Below, piece by piece: positions 74 to 35,056 of a stretch of 64,000 nt of DNA. Positions within the stretch are counted from its first letter, which is position 1. Each line of letters starts with the position of its first letter. The DNA comes from Psammoneis japonica (lineage: Eukaryota), in the NCBI GenBank assembly GCA_008632985.1, contig QPGO01000016.1:716840-780839 (forward strand), given 5' to 3'. The notes below the pieces were generated by a model. That model made no database searches and had not been told where the DNA came from. It saw nothing but the letters and a program-made list of their open reading frames with translations. The position numbers and the translations under genes were made by a program.

Positions 74-800
74 GATTGCAAAGAATGTGAATTTGTGAGA
101 AGCAAATGTGAAAAATGTGAAAGGCGGGACCAGGCATGGAAGATTTTCGGATATTTCTGGTCCCCTGCAGTCCCGCGTACTTATCCTGTGGAATCCCACG
201 TAAATGAGTCACTAGTGTCTGGGGAGAAAACAGAAAACGAACTATTTCGCCAACACTTTGGAAGACGCATAAACAAATGCCAGGAACAAGTTCCAGAAGA
301 CTTCCCTGTAAAAGATGGTACAGCAGCGCATAGCGCAAGTATCAGTACTTTTAATGCATCGTTAAACTGTTTTAAGCAGCCCAGAATAACACAAAAACAA
401 AAACAAGAATCGATGACCGCGCAGAGTCATTTGTTTGTCATTCGAAATACTCTCTCAAAAAGCTGAGGCGATCTTCGACGGATCATGGGTAAATAATACT
501 TCGAGAACGCACTCAAAGAACACAAGTCTGGTATAATGAAAACTCGTAAACCGGTAGCCGACTTTGTTCTCTAAGAACTACTGTGAACATTTTATGATCA
601 AACCGTATCTTGGAAATATAATCACAAACATGGTACGTATGCAGTTTAGAAGATAAAGCAAACACCCTTAAAGTATTGAAAGCCTGTGTAATTTCTTTGA
701 TATCTAGAGAAAGCTAATAGAGCCGGTGCGCGTGATTCTACTTTACGGGAATCGTCGTGCAGCGAACTGAGGAGAGTGTTGCAAAGGTCACAACAAAGAA

Positions 801-1286
801 CTATGGTTCTGATACGGGTGAAAGGGGCCTGATCTGTGGGAGGGGCTTGACCTGTGGGAGGGGCTCGGTGATGACTGATTTGGTCTTGGGCGGCTTCTTG
901 GCTTTGACTGGCTGGAGCGGAGATGTCACAGGCGGCAGCGGTTCGGTTATGACCGCTTTGTTGGTCGGTTGCTTCTTTTCAGGAGGCTTGCCACCACGCT
1001 TGACGGGTCTTTCTTTTTTATTCTTGACCCGCTCAGGCTTTCCGCGCCCTTCTCTCTTTTCCTCGTTCTTCTTGCGCCCTGTCTTTTTCGGACGTTTCGC
1101 GTTGTCGCGCTTTGATGCTTTGTTGCTCTTTTCGGCAGCGTGCTTCTTCGAAGAGCCCCGGCCCCGAAGCCCACGACGTGCTCTAGCTACAATAGAATCG
1201 ATCGGTCGTTTGTTGCTGTCAATGTCTATAGACGTGTAGAAGACAGCGAGAGAGAACAATAGGAGAGCGGCAGCGGCTAGTTTCAT
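801..1286 (-). CDS. Secreted Lys/Arg/Pro-rich low-complexity protein
   Basis: ATG start, hydrophobic signal MKLAAAALLLFSLAVF, RRGLRG, Lys-rich body, repeated VITEPLP(P/Q)V. Confidence 0.65.
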   Translation of the reverse strand: MKLAAAALLLFSLAVFYTSIDIDSNKRPIDSIVARARRGLRGRGSSKKHAAEKSNKASKRDNAKRPKKTGRKKNEEKREGRGKPERVKNKKERPVKRGGKPPEKKQPTNKAVITEPLPPVTSPLQPVKAKKPPKTKSVITEPLPQVKPLPQIRPLSPVSEP

Positions 1287-1768
1287 GGTGACGAAAATTG
1301 ATAATATACTCCAAGTAATTGTGAATTGTGAGAGCCTTCACAACATTTCAACAGGTAGGTCACAACAATCTCCAAGATTATGACTGTTGAAGAATGACTG
1401 TATCGAAACACATTATATTATTTTTTATTTGGTAATAAAAGCGATGAATTACTCAACATTTAGACACTGCGTATATCCAAAAACACTTATGCCCCATGAC
1501 TGATTGAAGAAGTTTGGTAGCCCATTTGCGAATTGAAAAAGATCGGCTTCAAAATTACAAGTCAAAAGAGAGGAGACGAGAGAGAGAGGAGAGGTACTTA
1601 TGTACTCTCTCTTGTAGCAGGAGGCGAAAACCAAAGGCGCAAATGAGATTGATCTCTTGCACTGTCATACGCTGCCCTCTCGTGTTCCAATACTAGGCTT
1701 CCACTATTCACCAAACAAATTTCCGTCGTCTCGTACACTAGCTAGCCGAACGCAAGTGCATCACCGGC

Positions 1769-3061
1769 ATGTCCGTTTCGCCAGAAGAGAATCATCCACC
1801 GCTGACTTCGTCAAGTTGGTATTTTGGCGTTGCAGTCACCCTCTGTCTTGCTGTGGCATGTCACTGGGTCTTGTTCCGTCGTGTAGACTCGCAGGAAGAA
1901 AAGCCCTTGTTGAGTGAACGAGAGTCACGAGAAAAATGGCTCGCAGAGTTGGAAATCAATCGAAAACAACAACAAGCGGAGGCACGGAAACAGGCAGAAG
2001 AAGAGAGAAAACAGGCAGAAGAAGCAGAAGTTGAAGAAGAGGATGATCCAAAACAAAAGAACAAGCTCTCGTCTCAAAAGAAGCAACAAAAGAAGCAGCA
2101 ACAACAAGCAAAGGCAAAACAAGTACTACCGTCTTTGCCGTCGACTGCAAAGGATATATCAGACCTAACGGACTTTTACAGTTGGTACAACGTCGAAACT
2201 AGTCTCTATAGGATATATGCAATTGGTCGAACCGATCAAGAGGTGATATGCCCTTTTATTCCAAGATCTGAACGTGGCCAGGTTTCAGTGGAGCTTGCAA
2301 TCACCAATGACATGGACCAGGATATCGAGATTTTCTGGGTTACCTACAAAAGTGTAGAAGAGCATCGCGGTTCCATCAAGCCGCGTGGAACCTGGTATCA
2401 AACAACTTGGATGGGCCATCCGTGGGTGTTTCGAACCAAAGAAGGGGAACTCTTGCTGCACTACATTCCTTACAAGATTTGTCCAACCATTCCGGAGATG
2501 CAGACGACTTCAGACCATGACGATCGTGTCGGTCTGTACCGATTCACCTTGTCGGGCAAGCATGAACCAATCATTCGGAATCGCAATATCCTTTCACAGC
2601 ATGACCGCTGTCATGTTGTGGATCCCATCTTCCCGTTGGAGTTCTCATCATCAAGCGATGCCTTGCAATGGACGTTGCAGCAAATGACTCGCTGGTCGCT
2701 GGTTGTCAACCCCATCAATGTGGATTTGGTGCTTACCTATCTTATGAATGTTCTAAAGAACCCATCCGAAACCAAGTATCGACAGATACGAATTGCTAAT
2801 AGCACCTTTTTCAACGAGGTTTGGAACACACCGAGTCGTGGTGTCTTTTTGGTGGCAGGATTCGTTGAACACGGTGCGCATGCTCAGCTGGGAACAAGAG
2901 ATACACTGGAGTATGCGTGGATTCAACACTTGTCAAATATTGTTCTGGAACTCCAACGGTACAGAGCAAAACAGCAGGATCTGCCACTTCCGACCGAGCA
3001 ACCCGAGGGTGCAGATGGGTACGGACGTGCTGGCTTTGGACGAGCGGGACAAATGCACTAA
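1769..3061 (+). CDS. Membrane-anchored protein with VHL beta-domain and C-terminal PUB domain
   Basis: 430-aa ORF. N-terminal TM and coiled coil; VHL-like IEIFWVTYK..QTTWMGHPWVFR; PUB-like YLMNVLKNPSETKYRQIRIANSTF..GF. Confidence 0.85.
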   Translation: MSVSPEENHPPLTSSSWYFGVAVTLCLAVACHWVLFRRVDSQEEKPLLSERESREKWLAELEINRKQQQAEARKQAEEERKQAEEAEVEEEDDPKQKNKLSSQKKQQKKQQQQAKAKQVLPSLPSTAKDISDLTDFYSWYNVETSLYRIYAIGRTDQEVICPFIPRSERGQVSVELAITNDMDQDIEIFWVTYKSVEEHRGSIKPRGTWYQTTWMGHPWVFRTKEGELLLHYIPYKICPTIPEMQTTSDHDDRVGLYRFTLSGKHEPIIRNRNILSQHDRCHVVDPIFPLEFSSSSDALQWTLQQMTRWSLVVNPINVDLVLTYLMNVLKNPSETKYRQIRIANSTFFNEVWNTPSRGVFLVAGFVEHGAHAQLGTRDTLEYAWIQHLSNIVLELQRYRAKQQDLPLPTEQPEGADGYGRAGFGRAGQMH

Positions 3062-4294
3062 CTAAAAAGTATGTAGCTTCGTATAATGTAGTTACCAAAT
3101 GAGCTTTTCAAGAATATAGAGTTGCCTGGGAGAGGGACCGCAGCGTAGTTTGGTGAATATGTGCCACTCTACGGTGTCTTCGGTGTGCTCGAGCACGGCT
3201 TGGGAATCCACACTTTTTCTTTCTCGCCTGTGTTGTAGGGCACGCCGTTTTAGTTGAATTTGGGTTGTTCGTTTTGTGGGAGCCAAATTCTAGAGAAGCA
3301 TTTGAAAACGTATCTTTTAAGCTTAGAAATCCCCTACGTCGCATCGCCCGAGATAACGTGAGAGCAGCATGGATGATTCGTCTCCAACAAGTGGCCATAT
3401 GAACATCGCGCATGGATCATGCAAAGCATCAGGAGTACTCGCACGGTAGTACTTTACGAAGTGACAACCGTATTCGCCATTGTATCAGTTGATGATGAAA
3501 AGTGGGCAATGGCTCTTTCAGCGAGAAGGCGATCTTGCGTGCACGGATCTACAGAGTCAGCGAGACCCAGCGTAATGCCTCCGTCAAATAGTCGTAGATT
3601 CTTGCCCCTCAGGCTCAGACTCCACCAACTTCAACAAACTCAGGAACTGTTACGCCATGTTGAATGTGCGACAATACCAGCCGTATCGAAGGACGATTTC
3701 TTCTTTGCTGTATTCGCATGGCGAACACATGACGGATTTGATAGCCACATCGCCAAAAGCTTTGATGCTGATTTCTGGGAAGATGAAGAAATGAACGGAT
3801 GCAAATTTGGGAATGCAAGCCAACAGAATTTGCCAAAAAGTCTCCTTGTCGCATGGGAGGACACCGAACCCACCGATAGATGAGCGCCTCCGCAAGATGA
3901 TTTGTGGGGAGAAATGTGGACAAAAATGAAAAAGTGACCAAAAAAAGAAAAAAAGAAAACTTCACTCGGTTCTCTTTTTTTGATACTATCACAGTTGTAA
4001 CGGACAAAATATTCTTAACATTATGAATATTATAAAATGATATACATTATTTGTAAACGTATGCTAAATTAATTTACTCTGGCAACTCGCCACAAAACCA
4101 TCCCCACTTTTCTCCATCAAGCGTTGAAGCGTTGGGACGTCTCAGGGTTTGTCATCACGTCGTCGCCGTCGCAACTTGTTTGCCATTCGTGATACTAACA
4201 GTGCAAAAACAATCCTTGGCTCAGCAACTATCACGACAAGGTCGTTTACTAGTCCTTGCCACTCTCCACTCGCACATTGTTTCGACTTTCAACC

Positions 4295-4954: not shown

Positions 4955-5959
4955 ATCGGCAATGTAAGGGGGCATTTCGTAAAGAAATTAGACAACACGA
5001 ATCAATGCAGTTGTTTCTTTGTTCGAGTCTCAGTGGAACTGTCTCTTTCTACGCTCCATTACAAGTAGTAACGTCTCTTGAACTCATTCAAGAAGAAAAG
5101 TTGTGTGATATGTATCGTTCGATTGTGAATTTTCATAGGGGAGAAAAGCTAAGGGGTCGTCGCTTCCAAGAATCGTCTCATTTCACTTAATGACGATGAT
5201 TCGCTCGCTTTATTTCACCCGGTCTGGGCGACTACCCCCAGCTGACGCGAACTTCATGGCTCGGCTTAACTTGACTCAGGTCCTGTACGCCCTAGGGTAC
5301 TAGTGGCTTCTTCAAAGCCTGTACCTCCCAGAAGCACAGCTTCAATGCCGGCCATATGCTCTAGCGGATGAATCACTCGAACTAAGCGCTAGCCGAAAGC
5401 ACAAAACGAAATCTAGTACTCTCTTGCGGTCACCAAATCCAACATATTGCTCTCGTCTCTTTCGTACATAGACGAATATCTATAATTCTTCGTTCCTGCA
5501 ACATCACCGCCCACAGTTTTCAACAACATACTCTCCTTGCGGGCAAAGATTCCAAATAATGACCAACATGGCAAGGAGGGACGCCTACTGAATAGTTGGA
5601 TAAATATCTGAATTGTAGCTGCTACCTTAGCTACTCTAATTTGTTCGCTATATTTGTCGGTTGATCGCTATCGCGATCATCGAGAGAGAAGCACACCCCT
5701 CAAATGATACCTGAATCAAGAAAGGCTCGAGACGCCCATAAGCTCGACCACGATCAATACATGAAATGCCAGGATGCTGACTTTGCAGAAGCTACCCCGA
5801 TGGAATGTGGATGTTTGCTGTGAAAGATTTGTCAACGAATTTGCGATGGACCCAACTGCGATTGCAACGCGCCCCCCCCCCCCCCCCTGCAACTCCACCT
5901 GTGTCTTTTCCATGCATCGATGATACTCATGCCTGCAAAGGAGTTTAAGTCCGTAGTGT

Positions 5960-6433
5960 TTACTTTTTCATTCCAATCCCCAGTCCATTCAATTCTTGCC
6001 TACACGGTCTTACCGTGTTGGTCAAATACCATTCCAACCTTTGCTCTGAAAAATGATTGAAATCCCATTCTTGATCTAACTCCAGGTGCGAGTGAGGATT
6101 GCACCACAGATACGTCAGAACGTCGTTGTGTTTTTCTTTGTTTGTTGCTGTCTCGACATTGACTTGAATACGATTGTACTCTTCTCCCTCAAACCAATCC
6201 AAAACTTCCATTTCATCCTTTGTAATGCCCGTCAAGAGTCGTCCCCATACGACCGAGTCGCCATTGCTCGAGACAATCATTCCTGGAAAGACGTGGCCTT
6301 TTACAGGATGGCGAGAGTGCTGCTTCAAACAAGCGTCTGTCAAGGAAGGAACGCGCCCCAGTAGTACCTCCAGCACTTGTGGTGACATGAGTGTCCCGTA
6401 GGCAAAGAGATTGTAAGAACTATTGGGTAACAT
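5960..6433 (-). CDS. Gamma-glutamylcyclotransferase / AIG2-like protein
   Basis: LFAYGTLM motif, HVFPGM, VWGRLL, LDWFEGEEYNRIQV. Start taken at ATG 6433 because the upstream part of the ORF lies inside the transposon. Confidence 0.9.
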   Translation of the reverse strand: MLPNSSYNLFAYGTLMSPQVLEVLLGRVPSLTDACLKQHSRHPVKGHVFPGMIVSSNGDSVVWGRLLTGITKDEMEVLDWFEGEEYNRIQVNVETATNKEKHNDVLTYLWCNPHSHLELDQEWDFNHFSEQRLEWYLTNTVRPCRQELNGLGIGMKK

Positions 6434-6478
6434 GGTTGAACCGTTGTCACAAAGCCGTGATGGAGATACCACTTCTAT

Positions 6479-9400
6479 CCCCCGTGAAGATTTTCGTCTG
6501 TTTTTTGTCCGTTCGTGCCCACAGGGGCACGAAAGGAGGCTACGTAGGACTGTACCAGCAAATCCTGTAGATGCACGTTTCCATGCCAACAAGATTCATG
6601 AACCTCTCAAACGAAAAGAGACAATGGCGTCGTTCTGGATCAACGCCGTAGTTGCTACGTCTGAAACCGCAGCGCGCCGCTTTTCTGCTCGTAGACTTGT
6701 ACGCTGTCCTGGTACAAAGGTCATTGTATGCATAGAGTCTACGATGAGGTCATGCTGAAGGAAGAATTCTCGAATTTGAATTCTCAGCAATCAACCGAGT
6801 TTGTGTACTTTCTATTTTTTTATGCTGCCAACCAAGTCTTACAATCACACATCCCTGATTCTACCTGCATAAGACGACACTGAGATTTCAGTCCACACAT
6901 AAGTTCACTTGCACCAATGGATGAATCGGCGTTGCACTCGGTGACGACGTCCGAATCAGATTGGGTGGAGTGTTTCAATCCAACAGAGGACTTGAATTTT
7001 TGCGACGAGGATCTCCACTTGATTGAGGACAGCTTGATGGATAAGTATGATAGAACCGAGCAGTCAAAGGACCGTCCAAAATGGAAAGTGGACAATGATG
7101 GGAAAGATGTTAAGATTGCCTTTAGCCAAGCTCCCCAAAAGGTGTGGGAGACGGCCAAAGCCGAGATTCAGGGATGTCGCGAGAGGGTGCAAAAACTTAC
7201 AGGAAAAGAATTCAAATCGATTGATCCTATTGAGGACATTGCGTTACTGTTTATGGGTAGTGCACGTCCTCTCATGCAACTTCTGGAGTCAGAGTTGTCG
7301 CTCAAGTTTCAAGAAGCTTCTCAATTGTTGCTGCCTGCTGCAAGCAAAAGGCACATCGGTTGTCAGTTGAAGAGTTGTATGATGATGACGATATAAATTG
7401 TGCTGGGCTAATGACCAAAGAGAAGTACAAAATGGTGTGGAAGTTAATGGGCCGTTCAGGCGATGCGTCATCGTCAACGGCTCGTAAGAAAAAGCCATTC
7501 TGGGAAAAATTCCAAGACAGGTTCAACGAGACGTGTCAAGAAATAAATGTGAGCCAGTCAGCATCCTTGATTGTTTCATTGGACGACGATAAAAAGAAAG
7601 CTGCAGTCAACAATGGAGATGACATGCTAGGTCTGAAGCAGGTTGTGCATGCAGACAAGCGAAAGGGCATCGTCGGTCACACAGCCGTGTCCCCTGCAAC
7701 TCTTTTGACGCACGGTGTTTGCTGGGAACGAGTGGGCGACACAACTTATGATTGTCATGTAAATCTTGTTGAGACAATATTTGGATGGAGGCCAACGCTC
7801 GACCGAGTCACGTTTTGCTCTGATCGCGGTTATTGGACGATGAAGCTTCTTACATGCTTGCTCGAGAACGGAGCCGACATTCATGGGACGGTGAGGCGTC
7901 AGCATTGGTGCCACTTTACTTATGACCAGACATTGAAGATCGGCGACCCCAGGGTTTTGATTGACACGACAGGGCCGGCAACACTTTACACGGGGGCTGC
8001 ATCGGTTTCGGAACGGAAAGTGGATATAAATGCTTTTCGAAACGGCACGAATGGCGTGGTGTTATCTATGTCAACTATGTGTCATGGTGCCCATTGGGAT
8101 CTTGTCCTCAAGGGGGGGAAAGAGCAAGTGTCAAAGCGTGTTCCACTTGTTTTAAGTCCCGAATATCGTCGTGCTCACACGTTCCGACGGTTTCTTGAAG
8201 ATCAGCCAGTTACGTGGCTAGAGTGTACCCCCGCCTCTCGACCCTACATCGTGCTGAACAAGGAGCAACTGAAGGTGAGCATGTGCAATTGCTGCTACTG
8301 ACATTATTTTACTATAGATCTAACCGAGTCGCTCCGAACCATTATTTGCTGACAAAGGCAAAATACCGAGAATGTATTAACAGCACGATACCGTCGAGTG
8401 TGACAAAAAACGATGACTTCATAGCGATTCTGAGCGGTGAAGTCTCCGCACCAGTTGCAAGAGATGGCGATAGTGAGCCAAAAACGCCACTGGAAGCAAT
8501 GGTGAAAACCACTTTTCTTCCACCACTCAAAGGTGAGGCGGCGGAGCTCTGTAGATTGGGACATGAGATGGAAGAACAGCACGGAAAAGATTTTCTTGGT
8601 GTTGCAAGCGGCGAAGGAGTGCGACTCGAAAACGGATCCGTATTTGTTGCAAACAATCTCTTCAGAGCCGGCCTGCTACAGAAGCAAAATCGCCCTTATC
8701 AAAAGGACAGTCCAGACTTCCTCTGCACTGGAACAATAGACGATAAGCGAATCGTAGCGGTTGTCGAGATGAAGGCGCGTTGCAAATCTACTACCGCCGC
8801 CAAGGAGCGTCAGCGCATCTCCGAAGTTGGTGAATTTTCGTTTGTATCATGTGATTCGCCTGAGTTACGCAAGTTCATACTTAAACGTTCAGAGGCAGTT
8901 CAGGTGAGCTGATGCACGGAATAACTATTTGATACTGTCGTTGTAACGGTAACTCACCTCAGTCTCCACGACTTCCTCGCTACAGTGCGCTCATCATGCA
9001 AGCACCCTTGGAGTCAACCACGTCATTCTTGCCACTGGAGACAGAGTAGGCCTTACAGCAATGGTGGTTATTGAGTACTCCGACGAGTTCCTTGAAAACT
9101 ACGAAAAGTGCATCAACGACATGTACGAGTCGGCATTGAAGTGGGCGTACGAGGAGGGCGTCGACATTCCAACGGAAGAGCTCAAGGCTGCTGTGAAAAC
9201 TGCACGAGTAAAGGTGGACTATGAGTCATTTATGAAATCGGTTTACTTTTGGAAAGAACTGACGAAGCCTCAGTGCTTACCACTCCCACCGTGCGAGAGG
9301 ATCATTCCCATGCAGGATGCGTACTGGAACAACACCAAGCATGGGTCGGACGTCAAAACCCAGTACTGCCAAAACCTGTCAGCCCCAATTCCTGTCACAT

Positions 9401-10342
9401 CTGCCGGAGCTAAGGCATACGACCGCATGCAAATGACAGCACTATCCGACATCCACAAAGGCGCTACCATGTTTATTACCAAGGAAGATCTCAACCAGTA
9501 CAATTCCCTTCACGACTTCAGAGACGATGCAAAGCACAAGATGAGCTTCAGAAAAGCACTCCTTCGATTGTCTAAGTTTTTCAAGAAGCTGAGCCAGCAA
9601 AATCTCCAAAGTGGAATTGGTTCTCCTTCGTCTTTTACAGGGATCGTTACACCATCACCAGCAACTCCAGTACAGCCGCCGAGGTGGATGCGCGGTGAAA
9701 TTCAAAAGGAACCAACCAATTTTGTAGCAAAAGGAACTGGAAAGTCTCCCAAGCGCTCTCACCTAGAAGCTCTACTGAAACCAAAGGACAGTTCTGAAGA
9801 GGTCCCTTCCAAGCGATTCAAGAGTTGTCGGGGTGTACCTGTGTTCAGAGCAAATGAAAACAATGGAAGTAAGAAAGGGAGTGGAGCTTTGGCGCGATGT
9901 ATCATGTGCGACTCCAAGACACATTGGTATTGCTCTGGCTGTCGTCAATGGTATTGTTGCGATAGTCCCCGTCCGCAAAGCGCTGGAGTCCCATACTTTC
10001 AAGATTCGTCAACGTACCGTGATGGGAAAAACAGGGATCGACCAATCGCCGGCGTGTACACATGCTTTATGCACTGTCACCCATCCATTGTGAACCAGGG
10101 ATAGTAATATGTATTTGTATTTAGTGAATATATCATCTTTTTGACCACCGGCGTAATTGTAGTACTTTGGAATATCATTTGTTGACAAGACGAGCGTCAC
10201 TTGTGTTGATGCTTTATCAATGAGAGCCGGTGTTTGTTTTGCACGTACAACTCGGTATGAAACCTACAGGGGCGTCGTTCGTGCCCACAGGAGCACGAAC
10301 TTTTGCGTTCGTGCCCACACGCGCACGAAACTATCACGCGGG
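6479..10342 (+). mobile_element. piggyBac-like DNA transposon with imperfect TIRs and CTAT TSD
   Basis: CTAT at 6475-6478 and 10343-10346. Left end CCCCCGTGAAGATTTTCGT; right end (reverse complement) CCCGCGTGATAGTTTCGT. Shared subterminal palindromes; internal transposase. Confidence 0.8.
6917..10104 (+). CDS. piggyBac-like DDD transposase with inserted YqaJ-like nuclease domain and C-terminal Cys-rich domain (spliced; frameshift ~7330, unresolved junction ~8275-8320)
   Basis: SLDDDK (D1), SDRGYW..GADIHGTVRR (D2), YWNNTKHGSDVKTQ (D3), CIMC..WYCSGC..CFMHCH. YqaJ-like GHEME/SPD/EMK/Q-x-x-H-H. Intron 8904-8985 joins the ORFs in frame. Confidence 0.75.
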
Positions 10343-10496
10343 CTATGCAGCAACACGATACCGTGCGTTGATTGCGCGGTGTTTCAGGCTGACACCAGGA
10401 AACGCCACCCAAAAACTCACGACTGACCACGACTTCCCGCCACGCACGTCTCACATTATTTTTGCTCACGGCTCCGAGCAACCAAAAGTGTCCACA

Positions 10497-11255
10497 ATGA
10501 TCTTTCCCATGACGACGATAGTGAAACTTGCAGTGTTTATTTTCTACTGGACTGTCTTTGTTCATGCCGCATGGACTGGTAGTGTCATAAAGTCAGCGAC
10601 TGCGCCCGCGACAAAATGTGAATCTTGGCAACCATCAGAAGCCATCACCACAGCATCTTTGTCTGCTTGGAACCGTCGAAAAGCACTCGTCTTCATCGCT
10701 TCCGCTGGAACCTCCCTCGTTTCTACAAAACCATCATTAGCATACACACCGGATCCCGACAAACTCCAAGAGAGTTTGTATCTCATGAGCCGTGTCCAAG
10801 AAGCCACGGTTCAACAAGCCCGATTTGTTTCCAACTCGAAGTTACAGGAGGAACTCGGCAACAAAATGAAATTAACATTGAGATTGGTGGAAAAGAATTA
10901 TCGGTTGTTGGATCAAGTCAATTATGCTTCGGCCTTTGTACAGCCCGCCGATGCCATTGTGGAAGCAACCGAGGCTGGCAATCGTGCGGTGGAAGCCTTG
11001 GATAGTGCCATTGAATACGTGCGAAACGACTTAAAGACGGGTCCGCTGACACGAGAACAACAAGACTTTTTGACAGAATGCATGACCACCACGAGACAAG
11101 AGTTGTTTGAATTTTTAAAGTACATGCCGGCCGACAAGCTTGCCGCCGCACGACAACGTGTCGAAGAAGAAAATGTCAATAATCGAGAAGAATTTGATGG
11201 TGCGGCCGATGCGGGAGTGTACAATCCAGTGGTGCTTCCTTGGAAGCAACAATAA
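10497..11255 (+). CDS. Hypothetical plastid (probably thylakoid-lumen) protein
   Basis: Signal peptide ending VHA-AW, transit-like stretch, twin-Arg Tat-like NRRKALVFIASAG..SLA, then helical domain. Confidence 0.75.
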   Translation: MIFPMTTIVKLAVFIFYWTVFVHAAWTGSVIKSATAPATKCESWQPSEAITTASLSAWNRRKALVFIASAGTSLVSTKPSLAYTPDPDKLQESLYLMSRVQEATVQQARFVSNSKLQEELGNKMKLTLRLVEKNYRLLDQVNYASAFVQPADAIVEATEAGNRAVEALDSAIEYVRNDLKTGPLTREQQDFLTECMTTTRQELFEFLKYMPADKLAAARQRVEEENVNNREEFDGAADAGVYNPVVLPWKQQ

Positions 11256-26908: not shown

Positions 26909-27206
26909 CCATTGTACCTTTAGATTAGAAAAAAGAACTTTTTGTCAATCCATCACCGGCACCATGATTTTCAACGCTAGCCAGCCAATCACATCGGTTT
27001 TTGTTGTTGAAGGAGCTCCGGGTTTACTTTTCATGTAATCTACAGCACCGCATCTTGTATCGATGTGAGTCCCATTGTACCTTTAGATTAAAAAAGAACT
27101 TTTTGTCAATCCATCACCGGCACCATGATTTTCAACGCTAGCCAGCCAATCACATCGGTTTTTGTTGATGTAATCTACAGCACCGCATCTTGTATCTATG
27201 TGAGTC
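26909..27206. repeat. Tandem duplication (26909-27071 / 27072-27206)
   Basis: Both copies run CCATTGTACCTTTAGATT...GTGAGTC; the first carries an extra ~27-bp insert. Confidence 0.9.
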
Positions 27207-31726: not shown

Positions 31727-34700
31727 GAATGTCAAGATGAGAGACCCAGATGTCACATCATGTCACCTGGATCAATTGAATGAGAAGGAGATGTTGACTC
31801 TGATGTGGTTGGCTGATGTGATCTTTTTCAATGAGATCACAACCATCAACACATTCTTTGCATGTGTTTCATTCTCTCACTCTTTGGAGTGAATCATTTG
31901 CTTTGCACAATTGTCAGTTGGCATCAAGAGGCACTTGTTGCTTTGGCAATTGTGCAGTTTGCACTGATGCCAAGGCAAACCACAGCCATTGTAGACTGCC
32001 GGGGCAAGCGCAACAAGCAGCTCAGGAAACCTTGCAGGATTCCCTTTTGGAGACATGGATTTGGTGCCAGTTCAACATTCACTCCAAAGAGTCAGGAGCG
32101 CTGCACTTGGCACTCATTTGCTTCAAGATTGCTGCCAACAAAAAGACATCAGAACACCTGCACAATGAGTGGCAGAGGAGGTGGCAGGATGAGCTGTCAA
32201 GGCCAAGGACAATGAAAAGGTGAAGGCCAGTGCCAAGAAACACTTTCAGTCTAAGATGAAGTTCTGTCCTTCATCACTGAACAGCTTTTCCTGCAATGTG
32301 ACATTTGAGGAAACCAAAGAAAAGATCACTCACTGCATGCAGAAGGAGTGCAGCCAAGGGTTGCACCTGGTGACATCCACAGAAGAAATGAACCACAAAG
32401 ACTTCATTGGACAGAGGCCCATGTGTGAAGGATCTAAGATTGTTCTGCCAGGTGTGAGCAACCCCAATTGCCAAGAACAACTGATGAAGAAGGCCAACAA
32501 AGAAAAAAGTGTGGATGGACACCCAACACAAGACAGACTTCAATGAATGGCACAAAAAGGCCAAAAAGTTCAAAGAGAACAAGACTGCTGCATTTGCCAA
32601 GCTCCTGGATGACTGCTGTTCAAAACAGATGAAACAAAGACTGCAAGAAGACCCCAACTTCAAGAACACCATCAGAGACAATCAAGCTGCACTGCTGAAA
32701 CCAATGCAAACCCTTGCACTTGACTCTGTGAGAGGTTGACACCCACTCCATGCACTCACAAAGGCATGGTGCACAAGACTTCTTAGAGAACCTGCCAATG
32801 ACAATTGGGGCAAGCCAGTCCATTGCATCAAGTGCCTGAGCCGAACAAGAAACGAAGTTGCTGTGCTGAGTGTGAAAGACCTCTGAATCATCAAGTGATG
32901 TGTGGACACATTGTTTGCAGTGCACCCTGATTTCAAGAGCCATGCCAGAGGTGCAATGACCATGGGTGCAAACACCCAAAGCAGCACTGAAGCTGAGTCA
33001 GCTGGAGTTGACAATGCAGTGACCATGACACCATGGACCAAGTTGTTCACAGAGCACCAAGGACACCCAATTGACACTGACATCCTGCATCAGGAAAACA
33101 AGAGTGCCATCATCCACTGGAGACAAATGGGTGTTGTCAAGAGAGCAAGAAAATGGTCTGGGCTGCTCAACATTGTTTTTTTGCAATGGATCAGATTGAG
33201 AAGGTCAACCCAGGCAGGGTGCAAGTCCAATGGATGACATGTTGGAGGACTTAATTGCCAAGCCACTGCAGGACAAGAAGCTCTGCAAGTTCAAGTGAGC
33301 CATTGTGGGCTGCCAAAGAGAAGGTGAGCATGAAGGGTGCGCAAGCTGTTTGTGATGTCAGACCAGAGTTTGGACACATGTGGGTGAAAGATCCCTGCAC
33401 CCAATGGTTGTGGTGAGCCAAGTGTTCAACAAACCACAAATTTGCTTTCAGATGAACCATGATGTCCATGAGAAGAGTGCCCACCCATCCTGATGATGAC
33501 CCAGGACACGTCAGTGAGGGGACAGAGCCACGTGACACTTGCTTGCAATGGTGGCGCCAAGACATTGTTGGGACAAGTTCAAGAGGCCAATTGAAATGTT
33601 GGAGGAAAGGAGAATGGAAACTGCAAATCAAGATTGCAAGATGGTGGTGGAAAAACACTGCAGACATGATGAGAATGGATTCATGCCAAGGCCTGTGGAT
33701 CCAATTGTCTTGCATGAAATGATCAACATGAGATCATTGATGTTGGAGTTGGAGAAGGATGGAAACAACATCTGGGACCATTTCAACAGTGTGAAAGATG
33801 AGTGCATGGAAGAGCTTGAAGACAAATGGCTGGCACAAGCTGTGGGCAGAGAGGCTTGAAACAGGGCCTGTTGTGTGCAAAGTCTGGAAGAAATGGTCTG
33901 GTGCAGCTCATCAATGTGTGTCTGCTGCTGCACCAATGATTTCCATGTTTGGTGAAGGAAGCACAGTGTTGCATGAGACAATGGAACATGCAAAGGCAGC
34001 ACACAAAGCCAAGGAGGATTGGCAAATCATTGGGACACACACCACAATCCAAGGTTTCAAATGTTGCAATGAGGGTGACAAGGTGGATTGTCCTGACAAG
34101 TGTGCAGTGAGGAGATGACAGCAGGGTTCAGAGGCAATGAGTTTGGCTTGCCCTTGACAAGAAAGACATTGACCTTGCATGGAAATGGTTGCTCACAAGG
34201 GGTTCACATGACTGAGTCATCAAAATGAAATGACACAATGGTGGTTTGGCAACAGACAACTGTGGACGAGTTGTTTGTGACACTTTGAAGTTGGTGTGGT
34301 TTTTCCATCAAAAAGTTGTTAAAGTGAAGCCTGTGCTGAAATGGGCGCTTGTTATGAAATGGAGTTTTGCCATCTGCAGCCCTGGAGAACCAATGAGTGG
34401 GTGTTGGATGCAATCAACAACGTGGGTCAATGCAGTGAGGGGAAGTGCAAGAGAAGGTTTGTCACGTTTGTGTGAAGAGTTTTGTTGATCAAGTTGACAA
34501 CACTGCAAATGAGTTTCATGTGATGCTTCACCTTGAGAGTTGTGGTCCCAACTGGGAATTCATGACATTGTGTGAACTGTTGGACAGCAACAACATTGAC
34601 ACTCCCATCGAATTAGAAGTGATTGTGCCAAGGGGCAATGCTGAGCCCAGTTGTGTGATTGTGAAACCAGCAGACATCAGATCATCAACATTTGAGTGGC

Positions 34701-35056
34701 GTGAGTGAGTCAGAATGTCAAGACAAGAGACCTGGATGTCATGCTGTGTGACCCAGATCAATTGAATGAGAAGGATGTTGATCATGGAGTGGTGTCGGCT
34801 GATGTGATCTTCTTTGATGAGATCACAACCGTGAGCACATTCTTTGCATGCATTTTGTTCTTCTCGCTCTCTGGAGTGAATCATTTGGTTTGCATGACTC
34901 CTGTCAGTTGGCATCAAGAGGCACCTGTCATTTTGGCAGTCGCGCAGTTTGCGCTGATGCCAAGGAAAGCCACAGCCATTGCAGACTGCCAAGACAAGTG
35001 TGACGAGCAACTCTCAGACAGGGGGGAGACATTGCAGGATTCCCTTTTGGAGACAT
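31727..35056 (+). repeat. Dispersed direct repeat: copy A 31727-32056, copy B 34713-35056
   Basis: Alignable from GAATGTCAAGA to GGATTCCCTTTTGGAGACAT; differences are dominated by transitions. Confidence 0.9.
32200..33320 (+). pseudogene. Internally deleted Ty1/Copia (CoDi-like) relic: gag fragment joined to RT/RNase H end
   Basis: gag-like FKENKTAAFAKLLDDCCSKQMKQRLQEDPNF..IRD; RNase H IIK*CVDTLFAVHPDFKSH, SSTEAE..GVD, WTKLF, ILHQENKSAI. Confidence 0.85.

Follow-up and report, generated by a model that had tools for sequence, protein, structure and literature searches.

The stretch of DNA analysed here, hereafter the window, comprises 64,000 nucleotides (nt) of Psammoneis japonica (GenBank assembly GCA_008632985.1, contig QPGO01000016.1, positions 716,840 to 780,839 of the forward strand). 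At window positions 6479-10342 it harbours a DNA transposon of 3,864 bp with the 4-bp duplication CTAT on either side. The gene within this element encodes a transposase whose family, according to structural models of relatives, combines a piggyBac-type DDD catalytic domain with a lambda-exonuclease/YqaJ-type nuclease, the latter lying between the second and third catalytic aspartates (D2 and D3). An earlier note on this DNA had proposed a piggyBac transposase with an embedded nuclease, and both halves of that proposal hold at family level through structural matches. Taken as a whole, the best explanation, and in our view a probable one, is that the window carries an internally deleted copy of a recently mobile, two-enzyme piggyBac-type transposon from a diatom-type genome.

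Borders and repetition of the element

The borders were determined with contigs from public runs (X1 and X2) that carry the same organism label; 318 contigs aligned to the window at 85-100% identity. One contig represents an empty site, in which position 6474 is joined to 10343, 3,868 nt are skipped and four letters are common to both sides. Since the joint shares these four letters, the element is delimited as 6479-10342 with a 4-bp target-site duplication, i.e., CTAT at 6475-6478 on the left and at 10343-10346 on the right, and both copies can be read directly from the letters.

The left terminal inverted repeat, CCCCCGTGAAGATTTTCG (6479-6496, plus strand), aligns with the reverse complement of the right end, where the repeat occupies 10326-10342 on the minus strand (reverse complement CCCGCGTGATAGTTTCG). 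The first base of the left repeat is set by the empty-site joint, and its CCC start is also found in L004 and L005, two distant metagenome relatives that are approximately 28% identical to the window in the stretch from D1 to D2. As read, the termini are CCCCCGTG... on the left and ...CACGCGGG on the right, so the element starts with CCC and finishes with GGG, as piggyBac inverted repeats do; the terminus is CCCTGGTG in L004 and (C)CCTGGGG in L005.

Close to the ends lie copies of a 22-nt palindrome, a single one at 6512-6533, 33 nt inside the left end, and two at 10278-10299 and 10308-10329, the outer of which stops 13 nt before the right end. The 64-kb window has these three matches compared with 0 expected, and all three flank the transposase gene. 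L004 and L005 have palindromes of their own in the same layout, with one palindrome 32-33 nt in from the CCC end on the left and the outer palindrome of a pair 13 nt from the end on the right. The right-end palindromes number two to four copies, L004 and L005 having two more than the window, farther inward. The 4-mers flanking these relatives are ATAT/ATAT (L004) and ATAG/ATAT (L005).

Summed word depth of the aligned contigs, a measure distinct from copy number, was 346-3,326 in the 28 bins spanning 6441-10388 versus 50 and 60 in the bin on either side. Because of the empty-site contig and this sharp rise inside the element, we conclude that the transposon family is repeated and that the insertion is polymorphic.

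The transposase gene and its damage

Four open stretches on the plus strand carry the motifs of the gene (6884-7396, 7261-8301, 8199-8912 and 8953-10104). The coding sequence starts with the ATG at 6917, and its first frame (6917-7327) encodes the N-terminal region, to which the relatives P0154, P0003 and P0153 align by tblastn as far as approximately 7330. The frame changes at 7327/7328. Homologues change frame between 7330 and 7339 (tblastn), and an extra C stands behind 7327 in 3/3 contigs (depth 563.2 of 563.2), so the 1-nt gap in the window at 7327 is either a real deletion or an assembly error. An intron at 7257-7366 in the first gene model was dropped, given that homologues align through it, that the frame shifts near 7330 and that other copies have the extra C.

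The second frame (7328-8274) comprises a helical DNA-binding part, D1, D2 and a beta-rich insertion domain, an assignment that draws on the family found by phmmer and on the match to the piggyBac fold described below. The D1 triplet DDD lies at 7582-7590 within SLDDDK (7576-7593), and D2 at 7822-7824 within SDRGY (7819-7833), which is followed by GTVRR; these motifs, and those named in the following exons, were found where the earlier note had placed them. Within this frame, at 8207/8208, approximately 200 codons are gone. Residues 448-648 of P0153 have no counterpart in the window (tblastn), and X1 and X2 contigs continue with other sequence on both sides of the breakpoint. Because the contigs diverge here, we conclude that the same organism has longer copies and that the window copy is deleted in frame. 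The deletion takes out the N-terminal motif of the nuclease together with an acidic linker, and the catalytic residues of the nuclease are retained.

An intron of 83 nt and phase 0 follows at 8275-8357 (GTGAGC...CTGACaaAG), placed by homology and by an X2 contig joining 8274/8275 to 8358/8359. This contig covers 8207-8275 and proceeds with the letters of 8359 onward, and across the intron the protein stays continuous with its relatives. The earlier note had regarded the junction at 8275-8320 as not cleanly in frame and suspected a damaged copy; the junction is explained by this intron, while the suspicion of damage proved right at other positions, namely 8207/8208 and 7327.

The next exon (8358-8903; translation P0001) encodes a SAP-like stretch and the nuclease core, whose residues are kept in 21-22 of the 22 full-length members. 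These are G (8559-8561) and E (8571-8573) in LGHEMEE (8556-8576), D (8715-8717) in KDSPDF (8703-8720), E (8766-8768) and K (8772-8774) in VVEMKAR (8760-8780), and Q (8901-8903), the last residue of EAVQ. A second intron of 82 nt (8904-8985, GT..AG, phase 0) is placed by homology, none of the aligned contigs being spliced there; tblastn of P0153 breaks off at 8903 and restarts at 8980 with no gap in the protein, which fits the in-frame intron proposed earlier. The last exon (8986-10104; translation P0002) begins with CAHHA, which contains the HH of the nuclease (8992-8997), and it continues through the C-terminal half of the nuclease, D3 (9349-9351, in WNNTKHGSD at 9325-9351), the second half of the helical DNA-binding domain and a Cys/His-rich tail (9898-10080) to the stop codon. 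D3 and the C-terminal nuclease half therefore share this one exon. The window copy is probably a non-autonomous one, internally deleted and possibly frameshifted, that relies on full-length copies to move.

The X1 copies differ from the window. One contig skips 75 nt within the Cys-rich tail (9908-9984), another omits 4 nt at 10197, and many transitions are scattered along the element. X2 contigs skip 9200-9280 and 9835-10013 with CT..AC ends, and from the loose ends at 8807 and 8881 more skips can be deduced, read as approximately 8808-8861 and 8880-8957. If X2 is RNA, these skips resemble GT..AG introns spliced from transcripts that cross the element in antisense. The word depth of the antisense-type X2 contigs is 338-546, as opposed to 7.3 for the sense-spliced contig.

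The protein family and its predicted folds

Among 1.84 billion representatives, phmmer recovered 306 relatives of the D1-D2 stretch (7369-8274) at E<=1e-3, including 135 at <=1e-10 and 12 at <=1e-30, many of them 1,190-1,380 amino acids (aa) long. All 22 relatives of near-full length are unnamed or 'hypothetical' and have no Pfam domain. The named members comprise three proteins of the diatom Seminavis robusta, each called 'unknown protein' (3/3), and MMETSP transcripts, one of which is labelled as the diatom Extubocellulus. A cluster of 56 proteins in the ESM Atlas (1,206 aa, commonest phylum Oomycota, score 0.90) serves as a lead only.

Full-length members are one protein of about 1,200-1,450 aa. 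It has, in order, DDDK, DRGY...GT.KR, T..QG..W...R.FS.TSS, an acidic low-complexity stretch, a SAP-like stretch, G H.LE, DSxD...E.K.R, E..Q.LHHA, PLP...R.IP....WN..KGGSD and a CxxC...CxxC...C...C..H tail. The catalytic triad is kept in almost every full-length member (D1 in 21/22, D2 and D3 in 22/22), as are the residues of the nuclease, i.e., the W, R and S of motif I (each 22/22), the G, E, D and E that follow (each 22/22), and further K (21/22), R (22/22) and H (20/22), while mean column identity is only 24% in a 19-sequence alignment (A1). The Cys and His columns of the tail are nearly invariant and give a weak PHD-type match (E 0.054). Judged by sequence comparison, the motifs in the window are not chance, being conserved positions of a family of 306 relatives. 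The nuclease and the DDD parts share a single frame in 22/22 full-length proteins and in 6/6 metagenome loci that reach the nuclease, the other four of the ten loci stopping earlier; in L005 the whole is an intronless open reading frame (ORF) of 1,456 aa.

Some members differ in their cargo. L004, a 7.6-kb metagenome element, has, 3' of the transposase, a second ORF of 405 aa (5196-6413) that encodes a SAP domain (Pfam E 9.6e-10). In the matching position L005 has two long open frames, 381 aa on the minus strand and 260 aa on the plus strand, neither with a Pfam hit, and the window element is too short for a second gene of the L004 type. P0154, an MMETSP transcript of 719 aa that is marked complete, has its post-D2 region joined straight to D3 with no nuclease module. 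It was considered as a case of clean removal of a modular insert, and this was rejected on the grounds that its D3 segment (450-477) has a predicted local distance difference test score (pLDDT) <50 and that the strand before D3 is gone; P0154 probably represents a transcribed copy, from another diatom, that arose by deletion.

For fold comparison we used P0153 (1,177 aa), the closest full-length relative, which is 45% identical to the last exon (best BLASTP local alignment) and 42% identical to the D1-D2 stretch (tblastn). It was folded with AlphaFold from a 109-row alignment (pLDDT 81.3, predicted template modelling score 0.77). Foldseek against the PDB places piggyBac (6x67_C) first (E 6.5e-6, probability 1.00), followed by Tn5 (2.1e-5) and piggyBat. 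With VIA-align, piggyBac 6x67_C reaches Z 26.1 (root-mean-square deviation (rmsd) 3.8, 374 aligned, model 100..1050, chain 117..544), piggyBat 23.7 and Tn5 chains 17.4-18.4, and the piggyBac alignment takes in, beyond the catalytic core, the helical DNA-binding domain that sets piggyBac apart. A second model, that of P0154, which lacks the insert (pLDDT 78.0), matches piggyBac at Z 22.5 and Tn5 at Z 14.0-14.8, and this model has no nuclease match. The language-model features of P0154 lead to named clusters of which the best ten (10/10) carry DDE_Tnp_1_7 or its clan, the top cluster scoring 0.90 with 183 shared features. On these models the DDD RNase H-like core, the beta insertion domain and the helical dimerisation/DNA-binding domain all have their counterparts in piggyBac, which argues for membership of the piggyBac group.

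In P0153, D1 is found at 246-248, D2 at 327, the nuclease motifs at 479-839 and D3 at 956. Strands 345-422 stand where piggyBac has its insertion domain, and because they replace it the nuclease is placed between that domain and the D3 segment. Residues 438-925 match lambda exonuclease (VIA-align Z 15.0, rmsd 3.6, 208 of 228 aligned; Z 15.0/14.8 and rmsd 3.5-3.6 for 3sm4_B and 1avq_A) and LHK-Exo (Z 13.9), and Foldseek likewise returns lambda exonuclease 3slp_A (E 4.4e-3, probability 1.00). The models thus indicate that a PD-(D/E)XK fold of the lambda-exonuclease type is present in the family, as the earlier note had anticipated. Its D...ExK signature, with the accessory Glu and Gln/His, is retained in the window (8571-8573, 8715-8717, 8766-8774, 8901-8903 and 8992-8997), and the N-terminal W...R...TSS motif, which 22/22 full-length relatives have, is missing from it. 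The Arg of motif I (22/22 members) we take to correspond to the 5'-phosphate-binding Arg of lambda exonuclease. The nuclease itself is split by a disordered acidic linker of approximately 45 residues, after which comes a SAP-like/helical region. Structural modelling therefore supports a piggyBac-type catalytic domain with a complete lambda-exonuclease/YqaJ-type nuclease nested between its D2 and D3.

Interpretation and comparison with known systems

Several points weigh against reading the element as a recently mobile, two-enzyme piggyBac-type transposon. The Pfam hits that the earlier note had expected, DDE_Tnp_1_7 and YqaJ, failed to appear, so the support is structural rather than based on hidden Markov models. 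PF13843 (DDE_Tnp_1_7) was matched neither by the four ORF pieces of the window (E<=1) nor by 28 long relatives (E<=0.01), nor by P0155 and the ORFs of L004 (E<=0.1). Among the same 28 relatives, 25 had no Pfam hit at E<=0.01 and 0/28 matched a piggyBac or YqaJ model; one (P0043) gave a sub-threshold DDE_Tnp_1 hit (E 0.001) and another a Rho_N/SAP-like hit. YqaJ (PF09588) had no match above the cut-off, the lone hit being L004:2614-4911 (14.4 bits vs 22, E 0.046), one of six proteins scanned in that Pfam run. Comparison of exons 2 and 3 (by phmmer) and of a family profile with PDB sequences gave neither a transposase nor a nuclease. The models are of relatives that are 40-55% identical to the window, not of the spliced window protein, and both enzymatic activities and the role of the nuclease are predictions from folds and conserved residues. 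The duplication is 4 bp as in piggyBac, but it is CTAT in the window, or ATAT-like, and not TTAA. As regards mobility, the word depth of aligned contigs does not give a copy number, and the empty site could be an ancestral allele instead of an excision product. Furthermore, run X2 is labelled 'DNA?', its RNA nature being deduced from GT..AG and CT..AC joints and uneven cover.

The family may alternatively lie outside piggyBac proper, either in a separately named superfamily, e.g., one of the Sola groups, or as a superfamily of its own, and it may already be in Repbase; we regard this as a real but clearly less likely option. It would agree with the unmatched PF13843 in the window pieces and the 28 long relatives and with a target other than TTAA, and Sola groups have DDD transposases and 4-bp duplications and are not known to have a Pfam model. 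The RNase H-like domains of Sola are described as without Pfam similarity (PMC5751038), and Maumus et al. 2009 mention, with no further detail, an uncharacterised diatom transposase 'weakly related to piggyBac' (PMC2806351). A literature search found no paper linking Sola to YqaJ. The structural comparison argues for piggyBac instead, as piggyBac outscores Tn5 by approximately 8 Z units in both independent models and the alignment covers its helical DNA-binding domain along with the catalytic core (chain 117..544). The CCC...GGG ends, the Cys-rich tail and the subterminal palindromes also mirror piggyBac, and the language-model features lead to DDE_Tnp_1_7 clusters.

Under the piggyBac-type, two-enzyme reading, the DDD site would carry out piggyBac-style excision and then 4-bp staggered integration, and the Cys-rich domain would bind the 22-bp palindromes as a dimer. 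The nuclease would bind the 5'-phosphorylated ends left by excision and resect them 5'->3'. This resection would most likely take place at the donor break, whereupon repair would restore the element by copying from the sister chromatid or homologue. That the nuclease serves donor-break resection, so that recombination restores the element, is a plausible role that we hold slightly more in doubt than in favour. More tentatively, the family may be a stramenopile-centred 'two-nuclease' lineage in which the exonuclease resects the donor break or the excised ends right after excision, forcing repair by homologous recombination and turning a cut-and-paste element into a copy-gaining one. If this is true, the fused architecture would explain why ISL2EU and KolobokE, which belong to unrelated superfamilies, independently recruited the same nuclease, and it would provide a single-polypeptide system for testing the idea of donor-break resection. 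The role of YqaJ/lambda-type nucleases in DNA transposons is stated as unknown (PMC4482050).

A different task, the chief alternative for the nuclease, is conceivable but improbable, namely that it cleaves the 5' strand, the non-transferred one, at the ends of the transposon in the manner of TnsA, itself listed as a PD-(D/E)XK transposase (PMC3424549), and so replaces or assists the hairpin step. A TnsA-like role would suit a single protein that unites a PD-(D/E)XK nuclease and a DDE enzyme, as well as the adjacency, along the chain, of the nuclease and the segment with the DDD active site. However, the fold matches processive 5'->3' exonucleases (lambda exonuclease Z 15.0, LHK-Exo Z 13.9), and TnsA-type endonucleases are not prominent, a TnsABCD entry at Z 7.2 having an aligned range (85..1006) that spans most of the model. 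The motif-I Arg that is kept in 22/22 members is also, presumably, the 5'-phosphate-binding one, and an unaltered pathway of piggyBac type agrees with the 4-bp duplication and the exact empty site.

Less likely again is a nuclease domain that has lost catalysis and serves only as a structural or DNA-binding module. The window copy and the transcript P0154 do exist without the complete domain, but both incomplete forms look like deletion derivatives, the D3 segment of P0154 (450-477) being modelled at pLDDT <50, and E, D, E, K and R are kept in 21-22/22 members despite the mean column identity of 24%. Very improbable, and rejected here, are a domesticated, transposase-derived host gene or a middle segment that is a separate nested element of the window copy, the latter raised in the earlier note: the window does hold one copy between ordinary genes, but both ideas are contradicted by the inverted-repeat ends, the 4-bp duplication, the empty-site contig and the steep rise in depth, by a gene with a deletion and a frame change, and by the nuclease lying in frame in 22/22 full-length relatives and 6/6 informative loci, including the intronless L005 ORF.

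The element is inserted in a spacer of approximately 190 bp that separates two divergently oriented genes. On the left, a minus-strand AIG2/GGCT-like ORF has its likely start codon at 6434-6436, approximately 39 bp from the insertion site; on the right, a plus-strand ORF (10224-11255) has its first Met (MIFPM...) near 10494, approximately 148 bp from the insertion. In the empty allele both gene starts would come to within approximately 190 bp of each other, and the insertion may affect both promoters. Elsewhere in the window, an 81-nt direct repeat occurs twice at 26929-27170 (161 nt apart, 99% identity), and three collinear repeat blocks approximately 2,990 nt apart (81-84% identity) at 31727-35013 suggest a tandem gene duplicate.

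With the nuclease fused inside the transposase of a lineage that has signs of recent mobility, its role becomes testable by point mutants of one protein, and YqaJ/lambda-type nucleases travel with several superfamilies of DNA transposons. The known range of piggyBac-type elements would be widened by a non-TTAA target and by a domain nested between D2 and D3, and hundreds of 'hypothetical' proteins from diatoms, metagenomes and other genomes would gain a family name. A native, possibly active transposon could also become a tool for diatom genetics. Our literature search found no paper describing a nuclease within a piggyBac-type catalytic domain, and a Repbase entry may exist under another name.

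Among known systems, piggyBac (Trichoplusia ni, 6x67) and piggyBat (Myotis, 9c0f) are the best structural matches of the family models, with Tn5 (IS4) clearly below piggyBac in both (Z 17.4-18.4 and 14.0-14.8). The proteins described here are 1,200-1,450 aa long, unlike the piggyBac transposase with 594 aa. The elements resemble piggyBac in the 4-bp duplication, the exact empty site, the CCC...GGG ends, the C-terminal Cys-rich domain and the asymmetric palindromic ends; in piggyBac, whose ends are asymmetric, the Cys-rich domain binds a palindromic repeat of 19 bp as a dimer (PMC7351741). They differ from it in leaving PF13843 unmatched, in a CTAT/ATAT-like duplication as opposed to TTAA, and in a module of approximately 490 residues (nuclease fold, acidic linker and SAP-like stretch) in place of approximately 14 residues before D3, the piggyBac insertion domain being residues 372-433, 14 residues before D447 (PMC7351741).

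With lambda exonuclease and YqaJ (1avq, 3sm4; LHK-Exo 3syy; PF09588) the embedded nuclease shares the fold, the D...ExK signature, the upstream Glu, the downstream Q..HH and the N-terminal W...R...TSS. Unlike these free-standing enzymes it is nested in the catalytic domain of another enzyme, is split by a linker and stays below the Pfam threshold. Bacterial Tn7 likewise couples a PD-(D/E)XK nuclease, TnsA, to a DDE enzyme, TnsB, for transposition; there, however, the two are separate proteins, and the fold of TnsA is restriction-endonuclease-like, not that of lambda exonuclease. Some DDD/E cut-and-paste transposons have a nuclease of the lambda-exonuclease/YqaJ type as well. That of KolobokE is located 3' of the transposase domain (PMC9587614); ISL2EU is accompanied by a YqaJ-type nuclease, as the earlier note had stated, and there it forms a separate ORF (PMC4482050). 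In the present family, which belongs to another superfamily than either, the nuclease is inserted into the catalytic domain, between D2 and D3.

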